Source of the DNA: Azolla caroliniana | Taxonomy: Eukaryota > Plantae > Polypodiophyta | DNA: 64,000 nucleotides | Reading direction: 5' to 3' | Assembly: GCA_043228905.1 (NCBI GenBank) | Contig: JBHGNT010000021.1 | Span: 7,130,001 to 7,194,000, forward strand | In this document: positions 19,235 through 64,000 of the stretch, one piece after another | Position numbering within the stretch: position 1 is the stretch's first letter | How the letters are laid out: every line of letters begins with the position of its first letter | Notes under the pieces: model-generated | The model's input: the letters and a program-made list of their open reading frames with translations, nothing else | Told to the model about the DNA's origin: nothing | The model's database searches: none | Made by a program: the position numbers and the translations under genes

Positions 19235-19425
19235 GTAATTTTTAATCCATATGTTTAGTACTTATAATGCAATGTCTAAGGAAGTAATTCTTGTGTTAGT
19301 GCATGCATACTAATTATGTTTGTAACTATTCAAATGGATGCATGCATACCAATTATGTTTGTAACTATGTTAAGTGTTCTTGATTGATCACATAGTACCA
19401 TCCTGTCACGTGAATTTGTGTTTTT

Positions 19426-20250: not shown

Positions 20251-20305
20251 TCTCGATTGACAACATAGTACTAATGTTTGTTGGAAACCTGGGATACAAA
20301 AACAT

Positions 20306-24100: not shown

Positions 24101-24386
24101 TAGGGTTTTCTCATAGTCGTTTGGTGCGGCCCATGTGGCCACCATTGTTGTAACCATTCGTTGTTTTAATATAACTTGTTGAACATCTTGCCTCCGCTGA
24201 TCTCTCCGTCTATGTCGTGGTCTTATTCCTTCCTCTTCTCCTCTTGACCTAAGCCTCCATATCATGTCCTATTCTTTCTCCTCCACTCCCTAGTCCGAGA
24301 CCCCGGTGGTCCCGGCCCCTTCTACACGTACGCGCGTAACAACGCGACATCTTTGGTGAACCCGACGTGAAGGGCGGCAAGGGAGC

Positions 24387-26009: not shown

Positions 26010-26240
26010 AGAAGAGCCGACAAGGCTGGAATTGTTCGGACAAACATGTACCGGCCGGTTACGATTACGGAAGGGAGCCGACCAAACCAGGACTCGATCG
26101 GCCCAGACCGATCCGGGCGAACGGGCCACAACACTCGATGGGAGCCGGTGAGCACAAGAAGGAGGCCAAGCATGCACAAGGAGTACGACTTGGTGGGAGG
26201 CTAAGAGCGAGAGGGACCCTCCTCACCTATTCTTGAGACT

Positions 26241-27992: not shown

Positions 27993-28299
27993 GGTTAGGG
28001 TTTCGTTTAGGGTTTCCTTATTCATCTTCGGTTAGGGTTTTCTCATAGTCGTTTGGTGCGGCCCATGTGGCCACCATTGTTGTAACCATTCGTTGTTTTA
28101 ATATAACTTGTTGAACATCTTGCCTCCGCCGATCTCTCCGTCTATGTCGTGGTCTTATTCCTTCCTCTTCTCCTCTTGAGCTAAGCCGAGACCCCGGTGG
28201 TCCCGCCCCCTTCTACACGTACGCGCGTAACAACGCGACAACGTTAGTACTGTGATATAAAAAATACAATGTAGGTCACAAGAACTGCATTACTAAATC

Positions 28300-29250
28300 A
28301 TTGGGCTACACCTAGTTCCCATATTACACATCTAGTACTAATCGTGAACAATGTATTATTCGCTTAGTTCCCAAATTACACAACTAGTACTAATCATGAA
28401 CAATGTACTACTCACTTAGTTCCCAAAGTACACAACTAGTACTAATCGTCAACAATGTACTACAAGTATAGTGTGTACTAACACTAGTACTAGGCACGTT
28501 GTAATATAGATTGGACTAACATCTAATCCAATAAATGTAGATTGGACTTTAGTACTAACATGGTATTTTGCACACAAGTAATACTAAACGTGATATGTGT
28601 TCTACACACCTAATTACATAACTAGTACTAATTACACCAACTGTATTAATCTTCAACAGTATTAGTACTAAATGTGATATGTGTTTGACACACCTCATTT
28701 CCAAATTACACAAACTGTACTAATCTTCAGCAATTTAGCATACACCTTGTTCCCAAATTACATAACTAGTACTAATCGTCAACAATGTATTACACAACTA
28801 ATTCCCAAATTACACAGATAGTACTAATAGTCAACAGTGTACTACAAGTATAGTGTGTACTAAACTAGTACTAGGCAAGTTGTAATATAGATTGGACGAA
28901 CAACTTATCCAACAAATACATCTAAACAACTTCCTTCTTTAGTACTAAAGTGGTATTTTGCATACAAGTAGTACTAATCATGATATGTGTTCTACACTCC
29001 TAATTCCCAAATTACACGTTTAGTACTAATCGTTCACAGTGTACTACATACCTTGTGCTCAAATTACATAACTAGTACCAATCCTGAACAATGTCACACA
29101 TGGTTCCCAAATTACTCAAATAGTACTAATTCTGGAAAATATCCGTTCAACTACCCATACCAATTATATATTAAGAGTACTACCAATACTAACCCACATA
29201 AATAGGGTTCCACATATTAGTTGTTGGAGCTACACTAGTACTAATCCATT
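28300..29250. repeat. Degenerate intronic repeat array built on ttcccaaattacacaactagtactaatc
   Basis: Many units of about 50 bp containing TAGTACTA, plus a higher-order duplication (about 28420-28640 versus 28800-29030). Confidence 0.8.
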
Positions 29251-33951: not shown

Positions 33952-34673
33952 TCCGCCCCCACCAAACCGCACGTTGTCGTGAAGAAAACCGTCCCTTAGC
34001 GCAATCGGTGCATAGCGCGCGTGAACCGGTTCTTCACGCGTGCGCGCCCTTAATGTATATAATAGAGAATTAGGTACATAGGTATATCCTGGGTAGTTAG
34101 ATTCGGTAGGTAGGAAGTAAATGAAGGAGACGGCTCCCTTCTTGACGCTATAAAGGAGAGGGAGACACAGGGAGAAGGGATCGCGTATTGAGGAGGACGA
34201 AGTGTTGTCGGACCGGAACCGAACGCTTCTCCTCTGTTTGTTCTCTATTGCTCTTCTCTGCAGGTTTTCGGGAGGCTCGCGCTGCTTCGAGGAACGCCCA
34301 TGTGCTTCCGGCAGCACCTCCATCCTATCCCCTTTCGTGCGCAGACGAGCAGGCATCGGCATCTGTTTGCCGACCTGTTCGGTTGTAACCGCTCGCGTGC
34401 TCTGTTGTGTTTTTTTTGTGTCACTTGTTAATATACAAACATTTGTGTCTCTCTATCTTTGTGTCCATTCGTGTCTTCTGCGTTGACGGGCCGTGTCCCT
34501 GTGTTTCTTTGCTCATACGTAACCGGTCGTCTCTCTCTTTCTCTTTCCCCTCCTATCACCTACTCTTCGGTTCAAGACCCCGGGTGTCCCGCCTCGTTTC
34601 TCCACGCACGTGCGTAGTAACGCGACATATTTTGGTGAACGCGACGTGAAACAAGGCGGCAGAGGAGCAGAAG

Positions 34674-36754
34674 ATGAAGGGGTCGGATATTGCAGAGGCC
34701 ATGGCTTCGGCCGTGGACCGGATAGTGAGCGCGCGCGAGGGCACTGGCGCCCTTGACAGGGCTATTGAGGCGATCGTCGGTATGATCGGCCGGTTCAATG
34801 GAAAGGATGCCACGAGTTATTTGGCGTCCTACCGGGCGGAGATGTTGATGAGGGATATTCCGGAAGAGAGGCGTCTTGCCGGATTCCCTCGAGTGGCGAT
34901 GTCGGGCATCCATGCGGAGAGCCGGACCTGGGAGGAGTTCGAAGGACGGCTCCTGGAGAAATACAGGCTGGATGACGCGCTTCGACTTTCGAAGCGGGGC
35001 TTCATGGAGTGGGTGGAATCCCCCGACAAAGGAAGAAATGCGTCGGCACTCCTCTGGGAGTTTGAGGATCGCTTTGTGCGCCTTTCGGGGCTCGATCGGA
35101 CCGTTCTAGGCACAAGTCGCGTCCTACTGTTTGTCAAATCGGTTGACGCACGGGATCGGGAGCAAGTGGGCTCCTTACTGGAAACCGAAGACGGGCTGAC
35201 GGCCGACTGGGCCGCGGTAAAAAGAGTCTGCGGCCGTTTTGACAAACGGTGGGAGTGGGCTGATACAGGGGCGACTGGGGCGGGTCCTGTCGCAGCAAGG
35301 AAGCTCGAACCGATACCGCAGGCGCGACGGGAAGAGACCCGGGGGTGGCTCGAAACTAGTTCGGCTTCGATTAGCGTGGTCAGAGGCCCGTCCGGGGGGA
35401 CAGCTTTGGAGGAGCTAACACGGGCGGTAAAGGATCTCCAGATCGCCCAGGCTCGAAGGGAAGGCGGCAATCAGGCTCGTGACCGACGGCCTCCGGCAAG
35501 AAATAGGTGCATGTGGTGCGACGAGGTCGGCCACATCCGGAAAGACTGCGAGGACTTTACGGAGGCTTTGAGAAGCCGGGTAGTGCACCTGTGGGAAGGT
35601 CGGGTGCACGCCAGCGATACCCGGAGGGCCCTGAACCGAAATGACGGGCGAGGAGGAATGAAAAGGCTGATGGAAGAGGTGGCGGCCCGGCACGCGGAGA
35701 CCGTCCACTACTCAGCGTCAGCCGGTATTCGGGTCGGAGGCAACGAGGCCCGGAAGGAGAGCAAAGCCGGGTTCTGGCCGACGGTGCTGGAAGGCCTCGC
35801 CGGTGCCCGACTAAAGAAAGACGAGGTGGACCGCGCGGAGAAGCGGGTCCAGGAGGTAACCGGGTGGAGTGACCCGGTCGAAGAAAAGACGGGTTTCGTC
35901 GAAGCAGCTTGCCAGAACTACGAGGCTCTAGTTGAAGACAAACGGGTAGGTAAAACCGGAGGGGCCGGACCCTCACAGAGATACGAAAACCGATTCAGGC
36001 CGAAACAAAACGAGACCGGTGAGACCAGTGCCCGAGATAACAACAAGAAGGGCGGATACCGGTTGGGCACGGAGATCGAAAGGACCACGGACCTACGAAA
36101 GGTCCGGTGGAACTGTCGTTGCAGGAGGTGCTCGGAATCGCCAAGAAGGAGTTCCACGACTCCATCGTAGACTTGGTAAAGAGGAAGAGGTTGTCGACGG
36201 AGACAGAACCGGAAAGGCCGGTGGAGGTGCGGACGACGCACATGGAGGACATGGCACTGGAAGACGAGTGGGCGGAGAGCCACTACTCGAGGCCACACCG
36301 GGTCCGAGCGACCACGGAAACCCCGGTGAAGATCGGAGATGTTCAGGAACCGGTGGGGGCGCTGGTGGACCACGGTTCGGAAATAGACCTGATGTCCGTG
36401 GACTTCTACAAGAAGGGGAAATGGTCGATCAACACCAAGCACGGGTGGAAGATACGGGCGGCGACGCACGCCACCGAGGAACTACACGGGGCCTGCCCAA
36501 ACGTGAGAGTCAAGATCGGCGACGTCGAGATAGATCAGCACTTCTTTGTGCAGGAGACGTCCTCGCACCCGGTCATACTGGGAGAACCGTACATTACGGC
36601 AGCGCGGATGGAGACCAAGGTGTTGGATAACGGGTCGGCTTACACGAGGTTCAAGAGTCAAGACGGGTGTAATTCGGTCCAGTTCCTGACGGTGCGACCG
36701 AACCACGAGCGAAACCGCGAGTCCCTCGGTGGCGAGAACCGAGAGGATTTTTAG
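34674..36754 (+). pseudogene. gag: ORF1 of F: Gag, CCHC knuckle and aspartic protease
   Basis: CMWCDEVGHIRKDC, ALVDHGSEIDLM, VILGEPY. A small deletion near 36105 relative to E shifts the frame. Confidence 0.88.
36745..36754 (+). promoter_or_regulatory. Putative -1 ribosomal frameshift site G_GAT_TTT_TAG (F)
   Basis: Heptamer abuts the ORF1 stop. The pol frame is -1 and open across it. Identical in E. Confidence 0.65.
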
Positions 36755-39700
36755 AGAGGGCTGTCAAGGCGTGGGGCCACGACAGTCCGGACACTCCGGA
36801 AAAACCCCACAAATGTACGATAGAGGCAAAACCGAAGAAACCTTGTACCATAAGTAGGAAGTTTTGTTTCTCCGACAACGGAGGGTGTACGATAGTCGGC
36901 GTCGTTGGCCAAGAAAAGACAAGGGCCGAAGAGCGACTTCGGGCATGCGGAGTTCTCGGTCCCAACGAGGAAATCAACGGAGCCGTGGAGGCGGTCTCCT
37001 TCGACGATACCTTGGGAATACTACGAGAGGTGGTCGGAGAAGGCCTTAAAGAGGACCGTACGATACCGGTTTGTTCAGAAGAGATGTACGAAATCATCAC
37101 GGACTTCAGTCGAGGGCTCGAGTCGGATCGGACGGCCCGGGTTAACACGAAGTACAAGACTGTGGACCGGAAGGTAAGGCCAGTCGTGGCACCCTTACCG
37201 GAGGGCAGCGAGTTGCAAATCAAGGGGGTCGCGTCGGACCCCAGTTTACGAGATCCGGCCTGCATAGGACACACCTTCATCGACAGAACGCTATGGGAGC
37301 TAAAAATCGGTGGGGGCGAGTTCCTACTGCTGGCGGAAGAAGACCGGTTTCGGAGAATGCTCGGAAGGCACAGGAAAGCCTTCGCATTCTCACCGGGAGA
37401 GATCGGGTGCGTAGACCCGACAGTCGTGAAGCCGATGGTGATATTCACGGTACCGCATGTGCCGTGGAATCTCAAACCAATTCCAATACCGAGAGCTCAC
37501 ATCCTGGAGCTGATGGAGCTGTTGAGGCAGAAAGTCAATATGGGCATCCTCGAACCGTCGAGTGCCCCGTACTCGAACCGGTGGTTTACTGTACTGAAGA
37601 AGAACGGGACGTTGCGCTTCATTCAAGACCTGCAACCGGTCAACAGAGTGACCATTCGGAACGCAGGAATCGGACCAACGATAGACGAGTTCGTAGAGGC
37701 CTTCTCCAGAAGGTCGATCTACTCGGTCGGTGATCTGTACTCGGGGTACGATCAGTTCCAACTAGCCGTAGAGAGCAGAGACATTACGACGATGTGGACT
37801 CCTCTCAGCCTAGTGCGGATGTGTACCCTGCCACAAGGAGGGACGAACTCGGTGGCCCACATGGTGAATGTGATGAACAACATGCTGAGGGATTGTATCT
37901 CGGACATCACCATGCCATTCTTGGACGACATCCCGATCAAGGGATGTCTGGTGGAGGAAAAGGACGAAACGATCGGACCGGACGGATGCCGGAGATTCGT
38001 GGCAACACACATTGACGACTGCGAGAGGGTGCTGCAGAGGCTAGAGGACGCGAGGCTCACCTTCTCCGGGGAGAAATCGGCCTTCGGGCAATCAGAGATC
38101 ATGGTCGTCGGACATCTATGCGGACCGTATGGCCGGAAACCGTCTCCGGCTAAGGTGGAAGCCATCTCCGCAATGAAGCACGACTACAACTCGGTCACGG
38201 AGGTACGAAGGTTCTTGGGAGCATGCGCGTTCTACCACATATGGATCCCGCATTACGCCCACGTTGTCGAGCCGCTATACGGGTTGCTGAAAAAGGGGCG
38301 AAAATTCGAGTGGCAAGTCGAGCATACGGAGTCGGTCCGAAAGATGAAGGAGGCTCTTGCTGCAGCTCCGGCACTCCAGAAGGCTGTCTACGAGAAAGGC
38401 ACCCCCATCTACATAACGGTAGATACAAGTCCGACCGGGATCGGATGGGTCGTCAACCAAGAAGATGAGGACGGTATTCGGTTCCCAATCCGGTTCAGCG
38501 CGAAGGTCCTTAGCGAGCGATAGCGAGGATACGCCCAAGTTAAACGCGAACTCTGGGGTATCATCTCGGCGGTAAAGGCCGATAAAGACTATCTGATCGG
38601 GACAGAGGTGATTATCGAGACAGACTGCCTGCCGATTCTCGGCATGGTTTCCGGATGCGCAACCCCGGACCTAGCAATGCTCAGGTGGATAGCGTACATC
38701 AAGTCCCTGGATCCGAAAATACGACACATTTCCGGGAAAGACAATGCCATGGCCAACATGCTTTCGAGGGCGCGATTCGACGACGAGGGCGGCATGGTTT
38801 CGGAGAACCAGGAAGTTGGCGTGGACTTCTTCGAGGCGGCTTACGTAACAACCAAGGGGGGGAGCACTCCGGCGCTTAACGATTTCAACGAGAGCAAGTA
38901 CGACGGGGAGTGGCTGCAGATTGGGGAATTCTTAAGGACCATGACGTCGGACGCGTCATGGACAAAGAACAAGGCCAACCGGATCCGGAAGAAAGCGTAC
39001 TGATTCTTTCTCCGGGACGGATACTTGTGGAAGCACCCGAAGAAGAGGAACGGCATCCCGCTCCGAGTAGTGGCGATGGAGGAGGAACATGAGGAGTTGC
39101 CGAAGGCCTACCACGACAGCCCCTGGGCTGGACACCGCGGGACATGGGCCACGTTCGAGAAACTAAAGGGGAAATACTGGTGGCCGAGGCTGTACCGGGA
39201 CGTGCATCGGTTCGTGACAACTTGTGAGAGTTGTCAGATGCACTCCATAGTCCGACATCGGGACGAGCTTCACCCTACTTACCCTCCGGCCATCCATTTC
39301 AAATGGATGGTAGATTTGGTGACGATGCCGATGGGCGTAGGGCAGATATGATATCTGGTGCTGGCCCGGGAGGACCTGACGAACCAGGTGGAAGACTGAG
39401 CCCTGCAGAACAAAACGACCGCAGCCGTGTGTCGGTTCCTGATCGAGGACGTGATATGCCGGTACGGGTGCGTCGGGAAGATTGTAGCTGATCGCGGGGA
39501 GTTGGACACCGAAGAGGCCGAGGAGCTGTTCGACCAGTTAGGGGTCAAGCTCACGCTCACCACAGCGTACAATCCGGAGGCGAACGGGAAGGTGGAGCGC
39601 GGACACAGACCGATCTTCAAAGCGCTAGTCCGGGCGTGTGAAGGCCAGGACGGGAACTGGCCACGATTGTTACCCTATGCCTTGTGGGCGGACCGGACAA

Positions 39701-40332
39701 CGCACAATTCAGTAACCGGGTTCATGCCGTCAGAGCTCATGTTCGGACAGAAGCCGATCATGCCGATGGAATGGACGATCTCCTCTTGGGCGACAGTAGA
39801 CTGGAGAGACGAGATGGGTCGGGAAGAACTGCTAGTGGCGCGTATACGGCAGCTCGAGCGGAGGCCAGAGGACGTGGAACGAGCGGCGGAGAGACTTCGG
39901 ACGGCGAGGATGAAGAACAAAGCCTGGTTCGACCGAACGCACCGGCTCCGACCAAAGAAAATCGAGGAAGGCGACTGGGTGCTAGTCTACGACAGCAGCC
40001 TTGACAACTAGCACCGAGCAACACGGAAGTTTGCGAAGCGGTGGTTCGGGCCTTACGTGGTAACGAGCGCCAACGACAACGGGATGTATCACCTGGCGGA
40101 ACTCGACGGTACGAGGATGGCGATACAGGTAGCAGGGAAGCGGATCAAAGCGTTCAAGAAGCGCCACGACGGCGAACCGGATCTAAGAGGCCTGGACAGC
40201 GACGACGAACAGTCCGAAGCGGAGGACGAATTGATGGACGAAGAACCGGAACCCAGACCAGTTTTCTCCAACCAGAACCCAATTTTGGCGCATACCGGTG
40301 GATGCGCGGTTAGGTGGGGGCGGATGTCGTGA
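36751..40332 (+). pseudogene. pol: ORF2 of F: RT, RNase H, integrase with GPY motif
   Basis: RFIQDLQPVN, DLYSGYDQF, PFLDD, TVDTS, GHRG..CESC, VADRG, ANGKVER, WFGPY. In-frame stops at about 38521, 39001, 39349, 39397 and 40009, mostly CGA>TGA or CAG>TAG. Confidence 0.92.
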
Positions 40333-41925
40333 AGAAAATCGTCCCTTAGCGCAATCGGTGCATAGCGCGCGTGAACCGGCTCTTCACGCGTGCGCGCCCT
40401 TAATGTATATAATAGGGAATTAGGTACATAGGTATATCCTGGGTAGTTAGATTTGGTAGGTAGGAAGTAAATGAGGGAGACGGCTCCCTTCTTGATGCTA
40501 TAAAGGAGAGGGAGACACAGGGAGAAGGGATCGCGCATTGAGGAGGACGAAGTGTTGTCGGACCGGAACCGAATGCTTCTCCTCTATTTGTTCTCTATTG
40601 CTCTTCTCTGCAGGTTTTCGGGAGGCTCGCGCTGCTTCGAGGAACGCCCGTGTGCTTTCGGCAACACCTCCATCCTATCCCCTTTCGTGCGCAGACGAGC
40701 AGGCATCGGCATCTGTTTGTCGGCCTGTTCGGTTGTAACCGCTCGCATGCTCTGTTGTGTTTTTTTTGTGTCACTTGTTAATATACAAACATTTGTGTCT
40801 CTCTGTCTCTGTGTCCATTCGTGTCTTCTGCGTTGACGGGTCGTGTCCCTGTGTTTCTTTGCTCATACGTAACCGGTCGTCTCTCTCTTTCTCTTTCCCC
40901 TCCTATCACCTGCTCTTCGGTTCAAGACCCCGGTGGTCCTGCCTCGTTTCTCGACGAATGCGCATAGTAACGCGACAACGTTCACCGGTACATGCCAAGT
41001 TCGGAGAAGGGTGAGAGATTCCGGCCGGTGATGAACCCGTCTTCCGTAATCCGCATTTCGGATGCCGCGTTGGCCTCGCCAGTCCGAAATATCGGCCCTG
41101 GTTCCTTCTCCACGTTTGCCTCCCCGTAGGCTTGTTCGACCCGTCGATAGGTCATTCGCCACAATCTCGTAGTGTGCGTGCTTCCCCATTGGCCCTCCTC
41201 TCAACCGCATGCATGCTTCTTGTCCCTTCAGATACACTGTGTCCTCCGTCCGAGGAGCACCCGTGATGGCTCGCTTGGTTCTCGTTCCGCGTTGATCTCC
41301 ACCGTCGTCGTCCCCTTGCCGCAACCTACCTTCTCCTTGGTCTTACATTGCCATGGCGGCCAAACTGCCAAGGTCTCTAGAACGAGTGTGGAGGATCCCT
41401 CTCCGATCTTCTACGTGAGATCACCTGGACCGACAATCCATCTTCGCGCCTATATTCCCGCTCTGGCACCTCCATGTGTCGCGCATCCCCTTCTCGTGTT
41501 CGGCTTCGCCCGTGCCGAACTCCGGTTTCGTCCTATGCACACGTCGTTGGCCCTGACCCGACCAGATCGTGCATCACCGCTTCTCCGCATACCGGTGTCC
41601 TCCGCGTATCAGGAACACCCCGTAGTAGCCCGCTTGGCCACTTTCGTCTTCCGTTGTTGCCACCGGTTTGGAGCCTTCCGCTTGGCGTCGTCCCCTCGCC
41701 CCCACTAGCTTGTTACCCCAGGTTTGGTCTGCCACGCTAGTCGTTGCCACTCCGACTAAGCCGCCGAGATCTCCGAAGTGGGTGTGGAGGATCATTCTCC
41801 GGCCCTCGATCCTGCTTCCGGTCTCCAATCCGTGTAGTTTGTTACGCGCCCGTGTTCTCATTCCCAGCACCGCCGTGTGCCGTCTTCCGCCGTCCTTGTT
41901 CGGCACCGCTTGTGCCGAACACCGT

Positions 41926-51899: not shown

Positions 51900-52555
51900 T
51901 GTCGTGAAGAAAACCGTCCACAAGCGGAATCGGTGCACCGGAGCGTAGGAACCGGCTCTTCATGCACGTACGCCTTATGTTGTACATAAGAGAGAATTAG
52001 GTACATAGAAGATCCTAGGTAGGTAGATTCGGTAGGTAGGAAGTTAATGGGAAACGGCTCCTTTCTTGCCTATAAAAGGAGGGAGGACAAAGTGTTGTGG
52101 GGGGTCGGGCCGAAGGCTTCTCTCTCTTCCATACTCCGTAGCTTCTTCCTGTGCAGGTTTTTCGGGAGGCTCGCGCTGCTCTGAGGAATGCCCGAGTGCT
52201 TCCGGCAGCACCTCCAACCTACTCCTTTCTTTCTGAGCGTTTACGAACAGGCATCGGCATCTGTTCGCCGGCCTGTTCGGTTGTAACCGACTTCATGCTT
52301 CTTGTTGTTTGTCCTTGTTAATATATATATACATACATTCGTGTCTCTCTGCATCGGTGTCCCACTCGCGTCTTTTTGTCGAAGGGCCGTGTCCCTGTGA
52401 ATCTACGCCCACACGTAGTGGGTCCCTTCCCTTCTCCTTTGTCTCTTGCTCTTCAGTACAAGACCCCCGAGGCCCCGCCTCATTCCACGCATCCGCGAGG
52501 AATACCTCGACATCTTGGTGAACCCGACGTGAAGGAGGCGGTAGAAGAGCAGAAG

Positions 52556-54682
52556 ATGAAGGGGTCGGATCTTGCGGAGGCCATGGCTTCGGCCGTGGAT
52601 CGGATATTGAGCGCACACGAGGGCACCGACGCCCTCGACAGAGCCATTGAGGTGGTCGTCGGTACGATCGGCCGGTTCAGCGGAAAGGATGCCACGAAGT
52701 ATTTGGCGTCCTACGGGGCAGAAATGCTGATGCGGGACATTCCGGAAGAGAGGCGTCTTGCCGGGTTCCCTCGAGTGGCGATGCCGAGCATCCATGCGGA
52801 GGTGCTCGAGGTACGGGCAGAGAGCCGTACCTGGGAGGAGTTCGAAGGCCGACTCCTAGAAAAATACAGGCTGGACGACACGCTCCGGCTTTCGAAACGG
52901 GACTTCATGGAATGGGTGGAGTCCCCCGGCAAGGGAAGAAACGCGTCGGCACTCCTCCAGGAGTTTGAGGAACGCTTTGCGCGCCTTTCGGCGCTTGACC
53001 GAACCGTTCTGGATACGAGCCGGGTCCTACTATTCGTCAAGTCGGTGGACGAGCGGGACCAGGATCAAGTCGGCTCCTTGCTAGAAACCGAAGAAGGGCT
53101 GACGACCGACTGGGCTGCGGTTAAGAGAGTCTGTAGCCGTTTCGACAAACGGCGAGAATGGGCTGGCAACGGGGCGGCCGGTGCGGGCTCTGTCACAGCA
53201 AGGAGGCTTGAACCGGCACCACAAGGGCGAAGGGCAGAGACCCGGGAGTGGCTCGAAACTGGTTTGGCTCCGACCGGCATGGTCAATGACTCGTCCGGAG
53301 GAGCAGCGCTGGAGGAGTTGACGCGGGCGATAAAGGATCTCTAGATCGCCCAGACTCGAAGGGAAGGCGGCGAACCGGCTCGTGACCGACGGCCGGCAGC
53401 AGGGAACGGGTGCATGTGGTGCGACGAGGTCGGCCACATTCGGAAGGACTGCGGCGATTTCGCAGAGGCGTTGAGGAACCGGGTGGTGTACCTATGGGAA
53501 GGCCGGGTGCATGCCGGCGATACCAGAAGGGCCCTAAACCGGAACGACGGGCGAGGAGGTATGAAGAGACTGATGGAAGAGGCAGTGGCCCGACACGTGG
53601 AGGCCATCCACTACTCGGCGTCGGCCGGCATTCGGGTCGGGGGCAGCGAGGCCCGAAAGGAGAGCAAAGACGGATTCTGGTCGGCAATGCTGGAAGGCCT
53701 CGCCGGCGCACGGCTGAGGAAAGATGAAGCGGACCGCACTGAGAGACGGGTCCGGGAAATAACCGGGTGGAGCGACCCGGTCGAGGAGAAGACGGGCTTC
53801 GTAGAAGCCGCCTGCCGGAACTACGAGGCTCTGGTAGAAGACAAGCGAGTGGGGAAAGCCGGAGCGTCCGGGCCCTCGCAACGATACGAGACCCAATTCG
53901 GGCAACGACGGAACGAAGTCGGTGGGTCCAGCGCGCAAGATAACCCCAGGAAGGGCGGATACCGACTGGGCACGGAAATAGAAAGGACCACGGACCTACG
54001 AAAGGTCCTAGAAGAACGGATCCTCGACAGCAAAGTGGAGTTGTCATTGCGGGAGGTGCTAGGGATCGCCAAGAAGGAGTTCCACGACTCCATTGTGGAC
54101 TTGGTAAAGCGGAAGAGGCTGTCGACGGAGACAGAACCGGAAGGACCGGTGGAGGTGCGGACGACGCACATCGACGACTTGGCGTTGGAAGATGAGTGGG
54201 CGGAGAGCCACTATTCGAGGCCACACTGGGCCCGAGCGACCACAGAGACCCCGGTAAAGATCGGAGGTGTTCAGGAACCGGTGGTGGCATTGGTGGACCA
54301 CGGTTCGGAAATAAACCTGATGTCCATGGACTTCTATAAGAAGGGAAAGTGGCCGATCAACACCAAGCACGGGTCGAAGATACGGGCGGCGACGCGCGCC
54401 ACCGAGGAACTACACGGGGCCTGCCCGAACGTGCGAGTCAAGATCGGCGACGTCGAGATTGACCAGCACTTCTTCGTACAGGAGACGTCCTCGCACCCGG
54501 TCATATTAGGGGAACCATACATCACGGCGGCGCGGATGGAGACCAAGGTGCTAGAAAACGGTTCGGCCTACGCGAGGGTCAAAAGCCAGGACGGGCGCCA
54601 TTCGGTCCAATTTCTAACGGTGCGACCGAACCACGAGCGAAACCGCGAATCCGTCGGTGGCGAGAACCGGGAGGATTTTTAG
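52556..54682 (+). pseudogene. gag: ORF1 of E: Gag, knuckle and protease, one premature stop
   Basis: MKGSDLAEAM start; TAG at 53342 (CAG in F); ALVDHGSEINLM; ends ENREDF*. Confidence 0.9.
54673..54682 (+). promoter_or_regulatory. Putative -1 ribosomal frameshift site G_GAT_TTT_TAG (E)
   Basis: The -1 frame is open from here into the RT ORF starting at 54817. Confidence 0.65.
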
Positions 54683-55838
54683 AGAGGGCTGCCAAGGCGT
54701 GGGGCCGAGACAGTGCGGACACTCGGGAAAGACCCAACAGTTGTACGATAGAACCGAAACCGAAGAAACCTTGTACGATAGGTAGAAAATTTTTCTTCTC
54801 CAATGACGGTGGGTGTATGATAGTCGGCATCGTTGGCCGAGAAAAGGCAAGGGCGGAGGAGCGACTTCGAGCGTGCGGAGTTCTCGGCCCGGACGAGGAA
54901 ATCAGCGGAGCCGTGCAGGCGGTCTCCTTCGATGACACCTTGTGGATGCTAAGGGAGGTAGCCAGAGAAGACCTTAACGAAGACCGGACGATACCGGTAT
55001 GTTCCGAAGAGATGTACGAAGTCATCGCGAACTTCAGTCAAGGGCTCGGGTCGGATCGGACGGCCCGGGTTAGCACGAAGTACAAGACTGTGGACCGGAA
55101 GGTAAGGCCAGTCGCGGCACCCTTACCGAAGGGCAGCGAGTCCTGGATCAGAGGGGTTGCGACGGACCCCAGTTTGCAAGATCCGGTCTGCATAGGACAC
55201 ACCTTCACCGACGGGACGGTCCGGGAGCTCAAAATCGGTGGGGGCGGGTTCCTACTGCCGGCGGAGGAAGACCGGTTTCGGAGAATGCTCGGAAGGCACG
55301 GGAAAGCCTTCGCATTCTCACCAGAAGAGATCGGATGCGTAGACCCGACAATCGTGGAGCCGATGGTGATATTCACTGTACCGCATGTGCCGTGGAATCT
55401 CAAGCCGATTCCAGTACCGAGAGTTCACATCCCGAAGTTGATGGAGCTATTGAGGCAGAAAGTCGATATGGGCATTCTCGAACCGTCAAGTGCCCCATAC
55501 TCGAACCGTTGGTTTACCGTACCAAAGAAAAACGGAACACTGCGCTTCATTCAAGACCTGCAGCCGGTCAACAGAGTGACCATTCGGAACGCAGGAATCG
55601 GACCGACCATAGACGAGTTCCCTGAGGCCTTCGCCGAAAGGTCGATTTACTCGGTCGGTGACCTGTACTCGGGGTACGACCAGTTCCAGCTAGCCGTGGA
55701 GAGCAGAGACATTACAACGATGCGAACTCCCCTCGGCCTAGTGCGAATGTGTACCCTGCCACAAGGAGGGACCAACTCGGTGGCCCACATGGTGAATGCA
55801 ATGAACAAGGTACTGAGGGATTGCATCCCGGACATCAC
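54679..55838 (+). CDS. pol: ORF2 of E, N-terminal part (RT), interrupted by Copia D
   Basis: WFTVPKKNGTLRFIQDLQPVN, DLYSGYDQF, LPQGGTNS. Confidence 0.9.
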
Positions 55839-58800
55839 TGTTGAGAACTTGACGTTCCTTATGTCCGTCGCTCGGCCACAACCGAGATTCTTTACATACA
55901 CAGCAAAACAGGTAATTAAAACGCAACACAAAAGAGGAGAAATGGTGCACAGGAGGTATACGTGGAAAACCCCAAAAATAGGGGGAAAAACCACGGCAGC
56001 CCACAAGCTGCAAACTGTCACTATGCAGAAGTATACAACAGTGAGATCACTGAGGCAACGACCTCGTGCTCTCAGATCTTCACCACAGGCGGCGGTTACA
56101 ACAGAGGCAGGCAACGACCTCGTCTCTCTTTCACTCTCTCTCTCTGTACAGTTACGCACTCTGATTTCCTCTTGCACCAACGACCAAAGAGATAACAACT
56201 AGAATAACTATATATATAAAACAACAACACACACGTATAACTAAAAGGTTTGCCCTAAGTCATATTTTACTAATATGACTTTTCGGCTATTTACAAATGT
56301 AGCCTTGATGGGCTCCATCCGGCTCTCCGCAGTCGGGTACTCCTCATCCGGCTCTCCGCAGTCGGGTACTCCTCATCCGGCTCTCTGCAGTCGGGTACTC
56401 CTCATCCGGCTTTCCGCAGTCGGGCCTACACCATCCGACTCTCCGCAGTCGGGTACTCCTCATCCGGCTTCATACCGTTTCGGCCTGTTCTTCTCCCTTC
56501 CCATCCGGAGGGACCTGTCTACCAACAAACTCCCCCTTCACTCCGGCATGGGGTGTCTTTCCAGCCCGATCCTCTTCCGGCATGCATCCAGCTTGTCGGG
56601 TGTCAGCACTTTGGTCAGCATATCTGACCCGTTCTCGGCCGTGTGGATCTTCGTCAGTGCGAACTCCTGGTCATCTACCCTTTCCCGGATCCAGTGATAC
56701 CTCCGCTGGATATGCTTCGTCCAGGAATGGTAGGCCGCATTCTTAGCAAGGTGGATGGCACTTTGACTGTCGCAGTAGAGTCGGTATTCCTCTTGCCGGA
56801 TACCGAGCTCTCCGATGAAGTACTTCATCCATAATATTTCCTTGCCTGCTTCTACAGCCGCCATGTACTCCGCCTCTGTGGTTGACAATGCAACCGTCTT
56901 CTGCAGCCTCGACTGCCACGAAACAGCTCCCCCTGCATATGTCATCACATACCCGGATGTAGACCGGCTGGTATCCACATCAGCCGACATGTCCGAATCG
57001 GTGAAACCGTCCAGTTGAGGTTTTCCGGAGCCGAATCGGAGACACATATTTGAAGTGCCCTTCAAATACCGGAGTATCCATTTGACCGCGTTCCAATGCT
57101 CCTTGCCGGGATTGCTCATAAACCGGCTCACCACTCCGACTGCGTATCCAATGTCCGGTCGGGTACAAACCATTGCGTACATCAAGCTCCCGACGGCAGA
57201 GGCATATGGAATCTTCATCATATCTGCCTTCTCTCCTTTTGTCTTCGGGCTTTGCTTGCCGGACAACTTGCAGTTTACCGGAAGTGTCGATCCGACCGGT
57301 TTTGCATCTGACATGTTGAACCGGTGAAGCACCTTTGTCACATACTTCTCCTGTGACAGCCATAGTTGCTTCACTGACCGGTCCCGAATGATGTGCATCC
57401 CCAACATCTGTCTTGCCGGACCCAGGTCTTTCATTGAGAAGGTCCGGTTGAGAGCATTCTTCAGCATCCGTATTTTGCCTTGGTCTCGTCCGACGATCAA
57501 CATGTCATCCACGTACAGGAGGAGTATCAGGAAGTCCCCTCCTTCGAACTTCTTCACAAACACGCAGTGATCGGCCTGCGTCTTGTGGTACCCTTGATCG
57601 GTCATGAAGGAGTCGAACTTCCGATACCATTGCCGGGGAGCCTGCTTCAGTCCGTACAGGCTCTTCTTCAACCGGCATACCAGGTGCTCTTTCCCTTTCT
57701 CCACAAATCCTTCCGGTTGCTGCATGTAGATTTCCTCTTCGAGGTCGCCGTGGAGGAATGCCGTCTTCACGTCCAGCTGCTCTACCTCGAGATCCATGCT
57801 TGCTGCTATACTCAGCACCATCCGGATGGAGGTCATCTTTACTACCGGGGCGAATATTTCGTCGAAGTCCACGCCCTTCTTCTGCTGGAACCCCTTCACC
57901 ACGATCCTGGCTTTGTATCTCGGGGGGTTGCCGACATCTCCCGGTTTCAACTTGAATACCCACTTGTTTCGGAGTGCCCGCTTTCCTTTCGGCAGCTCCA
58001 CCAATTCGTACGTATGGTTCTCATACAGGGAATCCATCTCATCCTGCATGGCCCTTAACCATTTTCGGCTGTGGGTGTCTTCCTTCGCTTCTTCGAAGCT
58101 TTCCGGCTCCCCCTCATCGGTTAGCAGGACATGCTCTGCATCCGGAAATCTCCGGGGCGCCCTTCTCTCTCTGAGAGGATATCTACGTCTTCGGGCTTCG
58201 GTAATCGGTTCCTCCATTTGCTCTTCATCCGAATCCTATTCGGGATCTTGACCGGTTCCGGTCTCAGCTTCCTCTACTTCTTCTTCTGCCAGTTCGGTAT
58301 CCTCACCGTAACCGGCTGGTTCCTCGAGTGCTAACCGGTCTCCTGCCGGTTGGGTCTGCTCATTGTAGAGTCTATCCTTACCGGTCGACTCGGAGTTCAT
58401 TATCTTCTTCTCCGACTCCCAGTCGGCGAGCGTCTTGTCCTCCATGAAGATAATATCTCGACTCCGGAATACCTTCTTGTCGACCGGGTCCCACACTCGG
58501 TAGCCGAACTCATCGTCACCGTAACCGAGGAATATGCGTGGCCGGGTCTTTGGATCTAGCTTTCCTCTCCGGTCCTTAGCTACATGCATGTACGCGAGAC
58601 ACCCGAACACCCTCAGATGCCGGTAGGACACTTCCTTACCGGTCCATACTCTCTGTGGTGTGTCTCCGTCCAGGGGTACTGAGGGTGATCTGTTTATCAC
58701 ATATGTCGCCGTCGACAGTGCCTCAGCCCAAAACTTCTTGGGTAGTTTTGCATGCGCTAGCATACTCCGGACCCTCTCCATTATGGTCCGGTTCATCCTC

Positions 58801-61328
58801 TCGGCCAGTCCGTTTAGCTCCGGCGTCTTCGGCACGGTAAATTCGAGCCGGATTCCCTTCGAGCGGCAGTACTCCTCGAACTGCCCCCGGTACTCACCTC
58901 CGTTATCTGCTCGAACCGCCTTCAGCTTCCGGCCGGTTTCTCTTTCCACTCTCGTGTGGAGCTCTTTGAAGACGGATAACACCTGATCCTTCGTCTTCAG
59001 CGGTGTGGCCCACAGCTTCCGGCTGTGGTCATCTATGAACGTCACGAAGTACTGCGCTCCGGCATGTGACTTCGTGTCTACTTGACAAACATCCGTTTGC
59101 ACCAACTCCAGTGGTGCATTACGTCTCATCGGTGGCCTTGGTCGGAAGGAGGTCCGGTTCTGCTTACCGGCCAGACAATCAGTGCACTTCTCTAAGTGCA
59201 CGTTCTTCACTGGAATGAGGTTGTCGTCTCCAAGCCTCTTCATCCCCTTCTCACTCATGTGACATAGCCTCTTGTGCCACAGCTCACCGGCAGTGTCGGA
59301 AGCCACGTTCACTTCTTCCGGACATAACCGGGCATTCATCAGGTACAGTGTGCTTACCTTCCGAGCCCGAGCCACAATGAGGCTCCCTTTGCTGAACTTC
59401 ATGACACCGTTCCGGATGCTACCCGTGTAGCCTTCATCATCTAGCCGACCGGCTGATATCAGATTCAGACGAACTTCCGGAACGTGTCGGACATCTTTCA
59501 ACAGCAACTTACATCCGGTTGGTGTTGTCAGCCACACGTCTCCTATGCCGACAGTTCGGCATGTTCCTTCATTCCCCATCCAGACACAGCCGTGATCACC
59601 GGCTGAGTAGGATGAGAAGCATTTCCGGTCCGGGGTAAGGTGGAACGACGCTCCGGAGTCTACCACCCAGGTCATCTCGTCGCCGGCATGGTTTATCTCA
59701 CTCTCCTCGGTGATGAGCATCAACTCCTCTTCACTTGCCGCAATTGTCGTCGTTCCCTTCCGGTCCGGCCCCCTCCGGTCTTTACCGTTCCGGTTCGGGG
59801 TTTGCTTCGAATCGGTACCGTCGGTTTCCTTGTCTTTACGGAAATGCCGACAGTTCTTTTGGAAGTGTCCCGTCTTGCCGCAATAGAAGCAAGTCGGCCT
59901 TCCCCTTGACTTTGATCGTGTCCCCGACTTCTCCCGGTTCTGGGGACTACGGTTACTATGTCTTCCGCATTCCGATTCGGTAAGGAGCGCTTTGGAGTCG
60001 GAGCTCGTATCTTTGTCTCTCCGACGAGCCTCCTCATCTAGCAAGCTCGACTTTACTCTTGCTAGGGATAGCCGTTTTCCTTCCGGCCTGGCGTTGCCCA
60101 AAGTAACAACCAACGTCTCCCAGCTATCCGGGAGGGAACCGAGCAGGAGTAGCGCTAGGACCTCATCGGCAAGAGGTACTTCCAATGACGTTGCCTGGTG
60201 AATCAGCCCCTGGAAGGCATTCATATGCTCCGCCATGCTGGAGCCATCTTGGTACCGGAGTCTTACAAGCTTCCGGAATACCGACGCCTGATTGACAGCA
60301 TTTTTGTTCTGGAACATTGTGCCGATCTTCTCCCAGAGCTCATGAGCCTTACTCTCTTCATTGAAGTTGTTGTACAGGCTCATGTCGATGAAGCACCGTA
60401 TGTACGCCGTCGTCTTCATGTGCATCACCTCCCATATCGCGGCGTCGATTTTGTCCGGTCTCTTGTCCCCGAACTGAACCGGCAGCCAGAGGTCTTTAAC
60501 CACGAGCATGTCCCTCATCTTCAACTTCCACACTGAATAGTTGGAGCCGGTGAGCTTGAACATGCCGCCAAACGATTCGTCCATTTTCTGTGTCGATTTC
60601 GCTCTGATACCACTTGTTGAGAACTTGACGTTCCTTATGTCCGTCGCTCGGCCACAACCGAGATTCTTTACATACACAGCAAAACAGGTAATTAAAACGC
60701 AACACAAAAGAGGAGAAATGGTGCACAGGAGGTATACGTGGAAAACCCCAAAAATAGGGGGAAAAACCACGGCAGCCCACAAGCTGCAAACTGTCACTAT
60801 GCAGAAGTATACAACAGTGAGATCACTGAGGCAACGACCTCGTGCTCTCAGATCTTCGCCACAGGCGGCGGTTACAACAGAGGCAGGCAACGACCTCGTC
60901 TCTCTTTCACTCTCTCTCTCTGTACAGTTACGCGCTCTGATTTCTTCTTGCACCAACGACCAAAGAGATAACAACTAGAATAACTATATATATAAAACAA
61001 CAACACACACGTATAACTAAAAGGTTTGCCCTAAGTCATATTTTACTAATATGACTTTTCGGCTATTTACAAATGTAGCCTTGATGGGCTCCATCCTGCT
61101 CTCCGCAGTCGGGTACTCCTCATCCGGCTCTCCGCAGTTGGGTACTCCTCATCCGGCTCTCCGCAGTCGGGTACTCCTCATCCGGCTCTCCGCAGTCGGG
61201 TACTTCCCATCCGGTTCATACCGGGCCTACACCATCCGACTCTCCGCAGTCGGGTACTCCTCATCCGGCTTCATACCGTTTCGGCCTGTTCTTCTCCCTT
61301 CCCATCCGGAGGGACCTGTCTACCAACA
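55839..61328 (-). mobile_element. Ty1/Copia LTR retrotransposon D (Tnt1/Tork-like)
   Basis: LTRs 55839-56527 and 60615-61328. TSD atcac at 55834-55838 and 61329-61333. Met-i PBS at 60601-60612; PPT at 56528-56539. Confidence 0.97.
56538..60584 (-). pseudogene. gag-pol: Copia D Gag-Pol with a single in-frame stop in the INT-RT linker
   Basis: ATG at 60584 (MDESFGGMFKL). All domains are present. TAG at 58236-58238; the frame continues to 56538. Confidence 0.93.
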
Positions 61329-61333
61329 ATCAC

Positions 61334-63671
61334 CATGCCATTTCTAGACGACATCCCGATCAAGGGGTGCCAGGTGGAAGAGAAGGACGAGACACTCGGA
61401 CCGGACGAATGCCGGCGATTCGTGGCAACACACATCGACGACTGCGAGAAGGTGCTACAAAAGCTAGAGGTTGCGAGGCTCACCTTCTCCGGGGAGAAAT
61501 CGGCCTTCGGGCAATCAGAAATCCTGGTGGTGGGACACCTATGTGGACCATATGGACGGAAGCCGTCTCCGGCAAAAGTAGAAGCCATCTCCGCGATGAA
61601 GACCAACTGTAGCTCGATTACGGAAGTTCGGAGGTTCCTGGGGGCGTGCGCATTCTACCACATATGGATCCCGCATTACGCCCACGTTGCGGAGCCGCTA
61701 TATGGGTTGCTGAAGAAAGGGCGAAAATTCGAGTGGCAAGACGAGCACACGGAGTCGGTCAGGAAGTTGAAGGAAGCTCTTGCGGCAACACCGGCGCTCC
61801 GGAAGGCTGTCTACGAGAAGGGTACCCCGATATACATAACGGTGGATACGAGTCCGACCGGGATCGGATGGGTCGTCAACCAAGAAGACGAGGACGGCAT
61901 TCGGTTCCCGATCCGATTCGGCGCAAAGGTCCTCAGTGAGCGACAGCGAGGGTATGCCCAGGTTAAACGCGAACTCTGGGTTATCGTTTCGGCAGTAAAG
62001 GCCGACAAAGACTACCTTATTGGGACAGAAGTGATTATCGAGACGGATTGCCTGCCAATTCTCGGCATGGTCTCCGGATGCGCGACACCGGACCGGGCGA
62101 TGCTCAGGTGGATAGCGTACATCAAGTCCCTGGACCCGGAAATACGACACATTTCCGGAAAGGACAACGCCATGGCCGACATGCTTTCGAGGGCGAGGTT
62201 TGATGACGAGGGCGGCATGGTTTCGGAGGACGAAGAAGTCGGCGTGGACTTCTTCGAGGCGGCGTACGTGACGACCGATGGGGCGAGCACTCCGGCACTT
62301 AACGGCTTCGACGAGAGCAAGTACGACGGGGAGTGGCTACAGATCGGTGGTTTTTTGAGGACAATGACGCCGGATGCGTCATGGACGAGGGACGAGGCCA
62401 ACCGGATCCGGAAGAAAGCATACCGATTATTTCTCCGGGACGGATACTTATGGAAGCACCCGAAGAAGAGGAACGGCGTCCCGCTCCGGGTGGTGGCGAT
62501 AAGGGAAGAACAGGAGGAGCTGCTGACGGCCTACCACGACAGCCCTTGGGCTGGACACCGTGGAACGTGGGCCACGTTCGAGAAGATAAAGGGGAAGTAC
62601 TGGTGGCCGGGACTGTACCAGGAGGTGCATCGGTTCGTGACAACTTGCGAGAGTTGTCAGATGCACTCCATAGTCCGACATCGGGATGAGCTTCACCCTA
62701 CGTACCCTCCGACCATCCACTTCAAATGGATGGTAGATCTGGTGACGATGTCGATGGGAGTAGGACAGATGCGGTATCTGGTCCTGGCTCGGGAAGATCT
62801 GACGAACCAGGTGGAGGGCCGAGCCCTTCAGAACAAAATGACCACGGCCGTATGTCGGTTCCTGATCGAGGACGTGATATGCCGGTACGGATGCGTCGGG
62901 AAGATCGTGGCTGATCGCGGGGAGTTGGACGCCGAAGAGGCCGAGGAGTTGTTCGACCGGCTAGGAGTCAAGCTCTCGCTTACCACTGCGTACAATCCGG
63001 AGGCGAATGGGAAGGTGGAGCGCGGACACGGACCGATCGTCAAGGCGTTAGTTCGGGCATGCAGAGGTCAAGTCGGGAATTGGCCGCGGCTGCTGCCTTA
63101 TGCGTTGTGGGCTGACCGAACTACGCACAATTCGGTAACCGGATTCATGCCGGCAGAGCTCATGTTTGGGCAGAAGCCGATCATGCCGATGGAACGAACG
63201 ATCTCCTCATGGGCAGCCGTGGACTGGAGAGACGAGATGAGCCGGGAGGAACTGTTGGCGGCGCGCATACGACAGCTCGAGCGAAGACCGGAGGACGTGG
63301 AGCAGGCTGCGGGAAAGCTTCGGGTGGCAAGGACGAGGAACAAAGCCCGGTTCGACCGGACGCACCGGCTCCGACCAAAGAAGATCGAGGAAGGCGACTT
63401 GGTGCTAGTCTACGACAGCAGCCTCGACAACCAGCACCGAGCGACACGGAAGTTCGCAAGAAGGTGGTTCGGGCCTTACGTGGTACAAAGCGCCAACGAC
63501 AACGGGGCGTACCATCTGGCGAAACTCGACGGCACGAGAATGGCGATACCGGTAGCTGGGAAGCGGATCAAAGCGTTCAAGAAGCGTCACGACGACGAGC
63601 CGGATCCGGTTAACCTGGACCGCGACGACGAACGATCCGAAATCGAGGAAGAACCGACGGGCGGGGAATGA
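61334..63671 (+). CDS. pol: ORF2 of E, C-terminal part (RT palm, RNase H, integrase), open
   Basis: PFLDD, VDTSP, GHRG..CESC, MVD..ADRG..GKVER, WFGPY. Ends in a short acidic tail with no chromodomain. Confidence 0.93.
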
Positions 63672-64000
63672 AGGGGACCAGTTTTCTCCATCCCAACTCA
63701 ATTTGGCGCATGCCGATGGATGCGCGGTTAGGTGGGGGCGGATGTCGTGAAGAAAACCGTCCACAAGCGGAATCGGTGCACCGGAGCGTAGGAACCGGCT
63801 CTTCATGCACGTACGCCTTATGTTGTACATAAGAGAGAATTAGGTACATAGAAGATCCTAGGTAGGTAGATTCGGTAGGTAGGAAGTTAATGGGAAACGG
63901 CTCCTTTCTTGCCTATAAAAGGAGGGAGGACAAAGTGTTGTGGGGGGTCGGGCCGAAGGCTTCTCTCTCTTCCATACTCCGTAGCTTCTTCCTGTGCAGG

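Follow-up and report, generated by a model that had tools for sequence, protein, structure and literature searches.

Phygy-type Ty3/gypsy elements of non-seed plants very likely express their polymerase by programmed -1 ribosomal frameshifting at a conserved recoding cassette, in which the heptamer G_GAU_UUU followed by a predicted pseudoknot would slip a minority of ribosomes one base back into pol. Based on comparative sequence analysis, we give this reading a probability of about 0.88. The cassette was analyzed in two elements within the window, i.e. the whole stretch of 64,000 nucleotides of Azolla caroliniana DNA considered here, and family comparisons indicate that the signal is lineage-wide, across a large family in non-seed plants. 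One recently mobile clade has altered this signal such that it would probably require a slip of two bases.

Two decayed elements carry the cassette

There are exactly two occurrences of GGATTTTTAG in the window, 54673 (main copy) and 36745 (second copy), both on the + strand (Table 1). The sequence-only reading had stated that ORF1 ends in G_GAU_UUU_UAG and that RT-RH-INT follows in the -1 frame, which was confirmed in both copies: pol is offset by -1 relative to ORF1, the two ORFs overlap by 220 nt (54673 copy) and 82 nt (36745 copy), the pol frame continues after the site with LERAAK and LERAVK, respectively, and profile matches place RT, RNase H and integrase all in this frame. It had also taken the copies as autonomous, but neither is intact. 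In the main copy, gag contains a stop and RT is interrupted by a Copia insertion; in the second copy, the gag frame is broken and pol holds five stops. Both are dead Phygy-type elements carrying a decaying cassette. The downstream stem it mentioned is present, but the quoted arms, GGGCTGTC...GACAGTCC, belong to the 36745 copy, in which 10 of 12 pairs are left compared with 8 of 12 in the 54673 copy.

Table 1. Features of the two elements (positions in the window)
Feature	Position	Strand	Remarks
5' LTR, main copy	51900..52512 (end approximate)	+	GCGT just upstream (NCGN-type target site)
Primer binding site	52516..52532	+	complementary to 3' end of host tRNA-Trp
ORF1 (Gag + protease), 708 codons	52556..54682	+	in-frame stop at 53342-53344 in this copy
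Predicted retropepsin-fold protease domain	54251..54620 (end approximate)	+	catalytic Asp codon 54296, D-H-G motif
Slippery heptamer G_GAU_UUU, main copy	54673..54679	+	
ORF1 stop UAG and 6-nt spacer	54680..54685	+	ORF1 stop at 54680-82
Predicted pseudoknot stem 1, main copy	54686..54716	+	arms 54686-97 / 54705-16, 7-nt loop 54698-704; 8/12 pairs left (decayed)
3' arm of predicted pseudoknot stem 2, main copy	54733..54738	+	pairs with loop; damaged; siblings CCCCAC in 28/30 hits
pol, -1 frame, first part	54679..55838	+	133-codon linker, then RT start motif at 55078
Nested Ty1/copia insertion splitting RT	55839..61328	-	5-bp target duplication
Remaining pol (RT C-terminal part, RNase H, integrase)	61329..63671	+	chromodomain hit: none
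3' LTR, main copy	63743..64000 (continues past window)	+	polypurine tract just upstream
Second copy	33975..40977	+	653-bp LTRs 95.9% identical, ACGT target duplication, gag and pol broken
Frameshift cassette, second copy	36745..36810	+	heptamer 36745-51, stop 36752-54, stem 1 36758-88 (10/12 pairs), stem 2 3' arm 36805-10

The assignment of the elements as Phygy-type is based on the target duplication, the tRNA-Trp primer site and the nearness to Physcomitrium proteins, where the nearest named homologs were found. Phygy, a non-chromovirus Ty3/gypsy lineage, is described with a 4-bp NCGN target duplication, a tRNA-Trp primer site and the order GAG-PROT-RT-RH-INT (PMC6317226). Correspondingly, the second copy is flanked by ACGT/ACGT, NCGN precedes 16 of 18 LTR starts that do not follow a polypurine tract, and the complement of the primer site at 52516 lay within tRNA-Trp genes at four of four loci checked (of 64 matches). 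Pfam returned the domain order PR-RT-RH-INT with no Chromo hit. The second copy is 7.0 kb long, compared with a listed Phygy range of 7.7-10 kb (PMC6317226).

The protease that had been read at the end of ORF1 was identified as a predicted retropepsin with the retroviral protease fold. The AlphaFold model reached block pLDDT values of 83-97 across the domain, and its best Foldseek matches were the RVP of Ddi1 and the proteases of XMRV, EIAV and HIV (E 8e-7 to 1e-4). PDB sequence searches gave nothing useful, and it is via the fold search alone that the domain was identified; the Pfam match to Asp_protease_2 (E 7e-4) lies under the gathering score. In place of the active-site motif D-[ST]-G, 103 of 120 homologs carry D-H-G, which lines up with D-S-G in the distant relative P0219.

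Conservation of the slippery site

Across 23 related families (46-77% nucleotide identity) the site has the consensus G_G[AGU]U_UU[UC]. The 23-family count demanded G-G by construction, whereas a second count used as its anchor just the final Phe codon in frame ahead of the ORF1 stop. Of 76 loci, 11 were dropped, and all 65 that retained an intact protease tail matched G_G[AGU]U_UU[UC], a heptamer of the canonical -1 kind that lies in the zero frame within the overlap of the ORFs. The preceding codon ends in G in all 23 families despite encoding 12 different amino acids (background third-position G, 25%), and conservation over the 30 nt upstream is only 30-65%. Thus, aligning family copies, as had been proposed, revealed a conserved heptamer between unconserved flanks. 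A pattern combining site and stem matched 3154 times in this genome and not once when reversed as a control, which argues against chance. G_GAU_UUU is a G_GA variant of the X_XXY_YYZ-type heptamer (PMC5009743) that supports -1 frameshifting in plant extracts, with G_GGU_UUU being equally effective (PMC4737148).

The stop after the heptamer varies by family (7 UAA, 6 UAG, 3 UGA). Slippage of the pure "shifty stop" kind does not serve as a general mechanism: in 7 of the 23 families a sense codon replaces the adjacent stop, and the heptamer is kept nonetheless.

A covarying pseudoknot is predicted downstream

In the 23 families the heptamer is followed by a spacer of 6 nt (21 families) or 5 nt (two families), within the canonical 5-9 nt, and then by a covarying predicted H-type pseudoknot. 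Stem 1 forms 9-12 of 12 pairs at one spacing only. For stem 2 (4-7 bp), cognate loops and arms score 14.4 compared with 11.8 when swapped and 7.5 for the background. Double changes were found at 15 of 18 pseudoknot pairs, and 82.6% of the pairing cells are paired versus 73.5% after shuffling and 36-42% after sliding. None of 10000 permutations reached the stem 2 score and none of 500 shuffles the observed pairing, counts that are not probabilities because the families share ancestry. Folding of single sequences was unremarkable (z -1.9 to -0.2 for five relatives, +0.6 and -1.25 for the window copies) and is not counted as support, and Rfam gave no match at E<=5 over 54600-54850. The proposed check for stem covariation was therefore positive for both stems, and the stimulator, earlier read as a plain stem, is rather a predicted pseudoknot.

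According to the proposed mechanism, ribosomes with tRNA-Asp on GAU and tRNA-Phe on UUU would stall at the pseudoknot, and the stalled tRNAs would re-pair one base back on GGA and UUU. A minority would slip and synthesize Gag-PR-RT-RH-INT, whereas most would terminate at the adjacent stop and release Gag-PR; therefore, protease would be about equimolar with Gag, and RT and integrase substoichiometric. Both the frameshift and this consequence are inferred from sequence. The P-site re-pairing from GAU to GGA is imperfect, which counts against -1 slippage.

The polymerase frame and other routes into it

Among the best 80 of 205 metagenome loci, 59 had both protease and RT hits, and pol was at -1 in 56, at +1/-2 in three and in frame in none; the single-ORF arrangement, named earlier as a refutation, was seen at none of these loci. 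Since both window copies are broken elsewhere, the split might be regarded as a chance indel in dead elements, but for the main lineage this is refuted, as 56 of the 59 loci are split identically and in one place.

From the site to RT runs a linker of 118-153 codons without a pol-frame stop in 20 of 23 families, i.e. a long -1 ORF open from the site as in canonical -1 frameshifting. In these families the 2563 codons of the pol frame contain no stop, whereas the other two frames contain 182 and 279. This result is favoured because the members with the longest open pol frame were chosen as family representatives; among the 12 single-member families, with no choice of member, ten are clean, while stops occur in L058 and L071 is truncated. 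These numbers bear on the possibility that some transcripts lose the ORF1 stop with an Ogre-like intron, so that protease becomes fused to RT. Such splicing has been shown for Ogre with the same GAG-PROT / RT-RH-INT split (Neumann 2019, PMC6317226), and Riccia gene models span the junction by apparent introns. However, a linker that is stop-free in the pol frame only and keeps protein motifs differs from the stop-containing intron between PROT and RT of Ogre, and donor-like GT positions in the last 90 nt of ORF1 are common to at most two of 23 families. Database proteins with fused Gag-PR-RT comprise 14 Riccia gene models and 6 of 44 distant representatives. Most of the Riccia models omit parts of the junction and look like products of predicted introns; they skip differing stretches (84-196 aa left). 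P0150 and P0183 could be true single-ORF relatives. Splicing would also leave heptamer and pseudoknot unexplained, and we consider it very improbable. RNA reads were uninformative either way: no RNA run was found that covered half of the stretch, X8 gave 124 reads, of which 123 fell below 95% identity and came from both strands, and no joint was listed for them, and a second set gave six reads, none at the site. Among these data no transcript of this genome was seen.

Separate translation of pol, from a subgenomic RNA or by reinitiation at a linker AUG, appears just as improbable. Twelve of 20 families have an in-frame Met 20-21 codons ahead of the RT start motif, but it is missing in the other eight, and between the heptamer and this Met another 100 or so codons contain no stop. 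The pol frame may open just 13 nt before the ORF1 end, which leaves the heptamer as the only fitting entry point.

The layout is widespread. ORF1 homologs are 700-770 aa long, and 107 with a protease tail end in DF/NF (52), DF/GF plus five residues (30), VF plus one (3) or otherwise (22); homologs with the same ending are named from Physcomitrium, Riccia and Adiantum. A search of viral contigs found no relative.

An offshoot clade with pol in the -2/+1 frame

The earlier -1 reading holds for the main lineage but overlooked one clade that moved to the -2/+1 frame. In this nested clade the site reads AG_GUU_UUU with a 5-nt spacer. Its families L074 and L086 (77% nucleotide identity) form a 100/100 clade amid -1 families, and pol is open for 1152 and 1099 codons in -2 compared with 0 and 5 codons in -1. 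The same site was found in 19 of 21 genomic copies, with an immediate -1 stop in 20 of 21, and the offshoot pattern has 89 matches in this genome (control 0), i.e. at least 89 copies. All six elements examined have LTR identities of 96.2-100%, and five show an exact NCGN duplication. The predicted pseudoknot is kept with 11-12 of 12 pairs and a stem 2 of 6-7 bp. We moderately favour the reading that this recently mobile clade switched from -1 to -2 by the change of G_GAU_UUU to G_GUU_UUU and the loss of one spacer base, using the same pseudoknot; pol would then be reached by -2 slippage on the five-U run.

Alternatively, peptidyl-tRNA-Phe might slip by +1 in this clade, which we regard as unlikely yet as the most serious of the alternatives. 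Such P-site slippage is established on UUU_C (PMC3498833), the L086-type site UUU_U permits perfect +1 re-pairing, and the ORF1 stop lies one codon later. However, 19 of 21 copies have the common form, in which a G follows, and +1 slippage there requires UUU to pair as UUG, whereas -2 slippage re-pairs UUU perfectly; the well-paired pseudoknot is retained, and a spacer shorter by 1-2 nt favours -2 (PMC3458567). The two directions are not fully separable by sequence alone. The clade could also be a defective lineage mobilised in trans, as related -1 families that could supply Pol are abundant in the same genome. This and the chance-indel explanation together are the least probable alternative; two 77%-identical families each keep a pol of about 1100 codons, and L074 has complete RT/RH/IN hits, which suggests that the clade is under selection on its own pol.

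Relation to known recoding systems

The alpharetroviral layout is gag-pro/pol, with a -1 shift between protease and RT. The retroviral pro-pol shifts of MMTV, HTLV, SRV-1 and MPMV likewise combine a -1 shift between protease and RT with heptamer and pseudoknot (PMC12789967), but viruses of the MMTV type must first shift between gag and pro, their heptamer is a different one, and env is absent here. The retroviral resemblance is best regarded as one of layout and not of descent. The umbravirus and dianthovirus signals of PEMV2 and RCNMV share G_GAU_UUU, a stop at once or a few bases 3', the short spacer and plant ribosomes, but rely on a bulged stem-loop that pairs over a long distance with the 3' end, in contrast to the local H-type pseudoknot predicted for this nuclear retroelement (PMC4737148, PMC5009743).

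Among plant gypsy elements, Ogre and Retand (Tat) also make GAG-PROT apart from RT-RH-INT, by a spliced spacer and a single in-frame stop, respectively; they carry an extra aRH domain, and neither is listed with overlapping frames (PMC6317226). Hence, a split after the protease, earlier considered unusual, is known as such, while its overlapping-frame version is absent from the Neumann 2019 table. The same source lists the ORF organisation of Phygy as ND and calls the clade species-specific (PMC6317226), whereas here GAG-PROT overlaps RT-RH-INT and homologs reach a liverwort and a fern. Dictyostelium Skipper was not supported as a precedent; its protease sits in ORF2 (PMC5006619).

The offshoot resembles the arterivirus nsp2 -2/-1 frameshift in G_GUU_UUU, a long -2 product and an immediate -1 stop (PMC6675879). 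In arteriviruses, nsp1beta and PCBP bring about the shift through a C-rich motif located 9-10 nt downstream (PMC6675879), compared with a pseudoknot 5 nt downstream and no implied protein factor in the offshoot. At the position about 10 nt downstream where the C-rich CCCANCUCC motif for a protein transactivator would be expected, the offshoot sequences examined have the stem-1 hairpin instead; the offshoot may thus function like arterivirus -2 frameshifting but is not a member of that type.

Implications

A 2016 review describes only +1-frame cases in plant elements as of 2003 (PMC5009743). With the present cassette, plant LTR retrotransposons gain a well-supported -1 frameshift signal, and the coding layout of the Phygy-type lineage, so far "not determined", is filled. 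The placement of the shift after the protease alters the expected particle stoichiometry, and the cassette would explain introns invented by gene predictors in these elements. If true, the offshoot would be a eukaryotic nuclear element that depends on -2 frameshifting driven by RNA structure, and its switch would be a natural test of the spacer-tension model. Collectively, the sister cassettes, -1 with a 6-nt and putatively -2 with a 5-nt spacer, allow the model in which spacer length sets frameshift direction to be tested on sequences that occur in nature.

Junction of Gag-protease and pol

The sequence GGATTTTTAG occurs twice in the 64-kb window, at 54673 and 36745. As the sequence-only reading had proposed, ORF1 (Gag plus protease) terminates at it in both copies of this Phygy-type Ty3/gypsy element, and the RT-RH-INT frame (pol) lies at -1 relative to ORF1 and is open across it. 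Both copies had also been regarded as autonomous, which did not hold, since both are dead. LTRs and a polypurine tract are present, as are a tRNA-Trp primer site and NCGN target duplications; primer site and target duplications agree with the features of Phygy in table MOESM5 of Neumann et al. 2019 (PMC6317226), and the homologs with a named source belong to Physcomitrium, Riccia and Adiantum.

The assignment of the protease to the end of ORF1 was supported by a weak Pfam match of the C-terminal domain (E 7e-4, under the curated cut-off) and by a confident predicted structure model, the fold of which matched Ddi1 and retroviral proteases. The domain is a retropepsin. Over the initial 140 codons of the pol frame, neither window copy has a D-[STH]-G motif. 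D-H-G replaces D-[ST]-G in 103 of the best 120 of 227 homologs with the retropepsin fold kept, an unusual active-site motif for the putative protease.

The surroundings contain several further elements. The non-autonomous relative shares LTR start and tRNA-Trp primer site, has an ACGT target duplication, and encodes an N-terminus resembling Gag, after which come long frames of low complexity without Pfam match, pol or heptamer. In the main copy (heptamer at 54673), the 3' LTR can be aligned with the 5' LTR over only 489 nt (99.4%); the match then stops, probably because of another insertion. Two clusters of the tRNA-Trp 3'-arm motif in the same assembly look like tandem tRNA gene arrays.

Locations of features in the window, the same assembly and further loci
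Feature	Location	Remark
Protease catalytic motif D-H-G	window 54296-54304	main copy
Cassette of the -2/+1 offshoot	L074:2836-2903; L086:2498-2565	members in the same assembly: L112-L131
Non-autonomous relative	window 23820-28242	
Ty1/copia element	window 55839-61328	in RT of main copy
Nested copia copies related to this insertion	window 2156-13234	one with 611-bp LTRs, 100% identical, at 3966 and 9104
Aligned part of main-copy 3' LTR	L111:743-1231	outside window
Tandem array	window 19384-20252	146-bp unit
Tandem array	window 28256-29130	52-bp unit
Tandem array	window 528-837	62-bp unit
tRNA-Trp motif cluster	C8:17.80-17.82 Mb	spacing ~1.2 kb
tRNA-Trp motif cluster	C16:4.99-5.11 Mb	

Conservation of the slippery site

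Among the best 30 of 40 scored junctions from 2269 candidates in the same assembly, the window included, the heptamer was kept in 28 and the stop in 30, a set biased because the query included the site. In 19 of the 28 heptamer-bearing matches the -1 frame stays open as far as the RT start motif, which lies 135 codons downstream. A degenerate pattern of heptamer, spacer and stem gave 3154 matches in this genome; its reversed control gave 0.

The best 80 of 205 loci from a metagenome scan comprised 76 with the ORF1 stop, 59 of them also with an RT match. Copies with a single ORF would have spoken against frameshifting; pol was in frame in none of these 59 loci, at -1 in 56 and at +1/-2 in three, of which L100 is degraded. 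Anchored only on the last Phe codon, the site reads G_G[AGU]U_UU[UC] in 65/65 loci, so that the expected conservation across copies was found; 11 loci with damaged protease tail or lacking the Phe were left out, with a heptamer nearby in six and none in five. Clustering of 67 usable loci at 80% identity yielded 23 families, mutually 46-77% identical, with the heptamers GGAUUUU (16), GGAUUUC (2), GGGUUUU (2), GGUUUUC (1) and GGUUUUU (2). The preceding codon ends with G in all 23 families (background 25%; forced in the case of Met and Trp) over 12 amino acids, and after the site all three stops occur, as does a sense codon in 7/23 families, which indicates selection on nucleotides rather than protein.

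The protease tail is present in 107 of the best 120 of 227 homologous proteins, and 85 of the 107 terminate at or just past a D/G/N/V-F pair. Of 44 more distant representatives with tail, 19 end at such a pair, 19 otherwise and six continue into RT. The proteins P0070 and P0112 end with PNF instead of DF, which could reflect an A_AAU_UUU variant of the site.

The linker between slippery site and RT start motif (118-153 codons) had 0 stops in the pol frame versus 182 and 279 in the others in 20/23 families, with representatives selected for the longest open frame; 10/12 single-member families were clean without selection. Of the remaining three families, L058 is degraded and has stops, L071 meets a contig end, and the motif was missed in L085, which was clean in a separate analysis. 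This pattern points to a translated linker. In the last 90 nt of ORF1, no splice donor common to more than 2/23 families was found, and the only frequent AUG in the linker is absent from 8/20 families. All 14 fused Gag-PR-RT proteins are Riccia gene models (P0142-P0155), most of which skip differing parts of the junction; we interpret these as predicted introns and as probable artefacts of annotating across the frameshift. The proteins P0150 and P0183 may be true single-ORF relatives.

A predicted pseudoknot and a probable -1 shift

A 31-nt hairpin (12+7+12) starts six bases past the heptamer; pairing of the loop with a stretch 11-16 nt further downstream gives a predicted H-type pseudoknot. 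Stem 1 forms 9-12 of 12 pairs at the observed spacing and at most 8 at other spacings, stem 2 has 4-7 bp. The stem previously ascribed to the 54673 copy actually belongs to the 36745 copy (10/12 pairs); the structure at 54673 is weaker (8/12). Both stem scores fall when arms are exchanged between families (observed values attained in 0/10000 permutations), and the suggested covariation was borne out by double changes in 15/18 pairs of a 24-row alignment, equalled in 0/500 shuffles, counts that are inflated by the shared ancestry of the families. Sliding the partners along this alignment lowered pairing from 83% to 36-42%. Single-sequence folding energies of the cassette were not exceptional, and an Rfam search of the region gave 0 matches.

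The most probable mechanism is tandem slippage by -1 at G_GAU_UUU under stimulation by the pseudoknot, such that the majority of ribosomes would terminate to give Gag-PR and a minority would produce Gag-PR-Pol. Gag-pro followed by pol is the alpharetroviral layout. The junction feature itself holds up and is kept throughout the lineage; the frameshift, its rate and the protease stoichiometry are inferred. G_GAU_UUU is functional in pea enation mosaic virus, where a nearby stop helps and G_GGU_UUU reached 112% of wild type (PMC4737148).

A -2/+1 offshoot

The loci L074 and L086 (77% identical) form a nested clade with support 100/100, flanked on either side by -1 families in a tree rooted by midpoint only. 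Their site is AG_GUU_UUU with a hairpin beginning 5 nt downstream, and pol is open for 1152 (L074) and 1099 (L086) codons in -2/+1 versus 0 and 5 in -1. At least 89 offshoot copies exist in the Azolla genome; in a sample of 21, the site is identical in 19, the -1 frame stops immediately in 20, and the -2 frame extends to the RT motif in 16. Six full-length elements chosen among the top matches measure 7.9 kb with LTR identities of 96.2-100%, hence the offshoot moved recently.

The change from GAU to GUU extends the U run by one on its 5' side and permits perfect re-pairing of tRNA-Phe at -2. Shortening of the spacer promotes -2 in vitro (PMC3458567). Pol might instead be reached by a +1 shift, as known on UUU_C (PMC3498833); in the common offshoot form this would need re-pairing on UUG. 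We regard -2 frameshifting as the rather more probable route, at about 0.6. The arterivirus -2 site is likewise G_GUU_UUU with an immediate -1 stop, but the shift there is protein-driven (PMC6675879).

Comparison with known elements

The REXdb summary table (PMC6317226) lists overlapping frames only for GAG/PROT (Tcn1, Selgy, SIRE), GAG-PROT splits only as spacer or single stop (Ogre, Retand), and the ORF organisation of Phygy as ND. Per-element ORF data in MOESM1/MOESM3 of the same paper may affect the novelty of the layout. Plant cases as of 2003 were all +1-frame according to a 2016 review (PMC5009743); see also PMC12789967, PMC5006619 and PMC5911963. A full-text literature search, with most subscription papers outside its reach, found no description of this signal. 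It represents a mechanism already known, though placed where it is uncommon, and is apparently undescribed for plant retrotransposons; the signal of this lineage probably has a -2 derivative.
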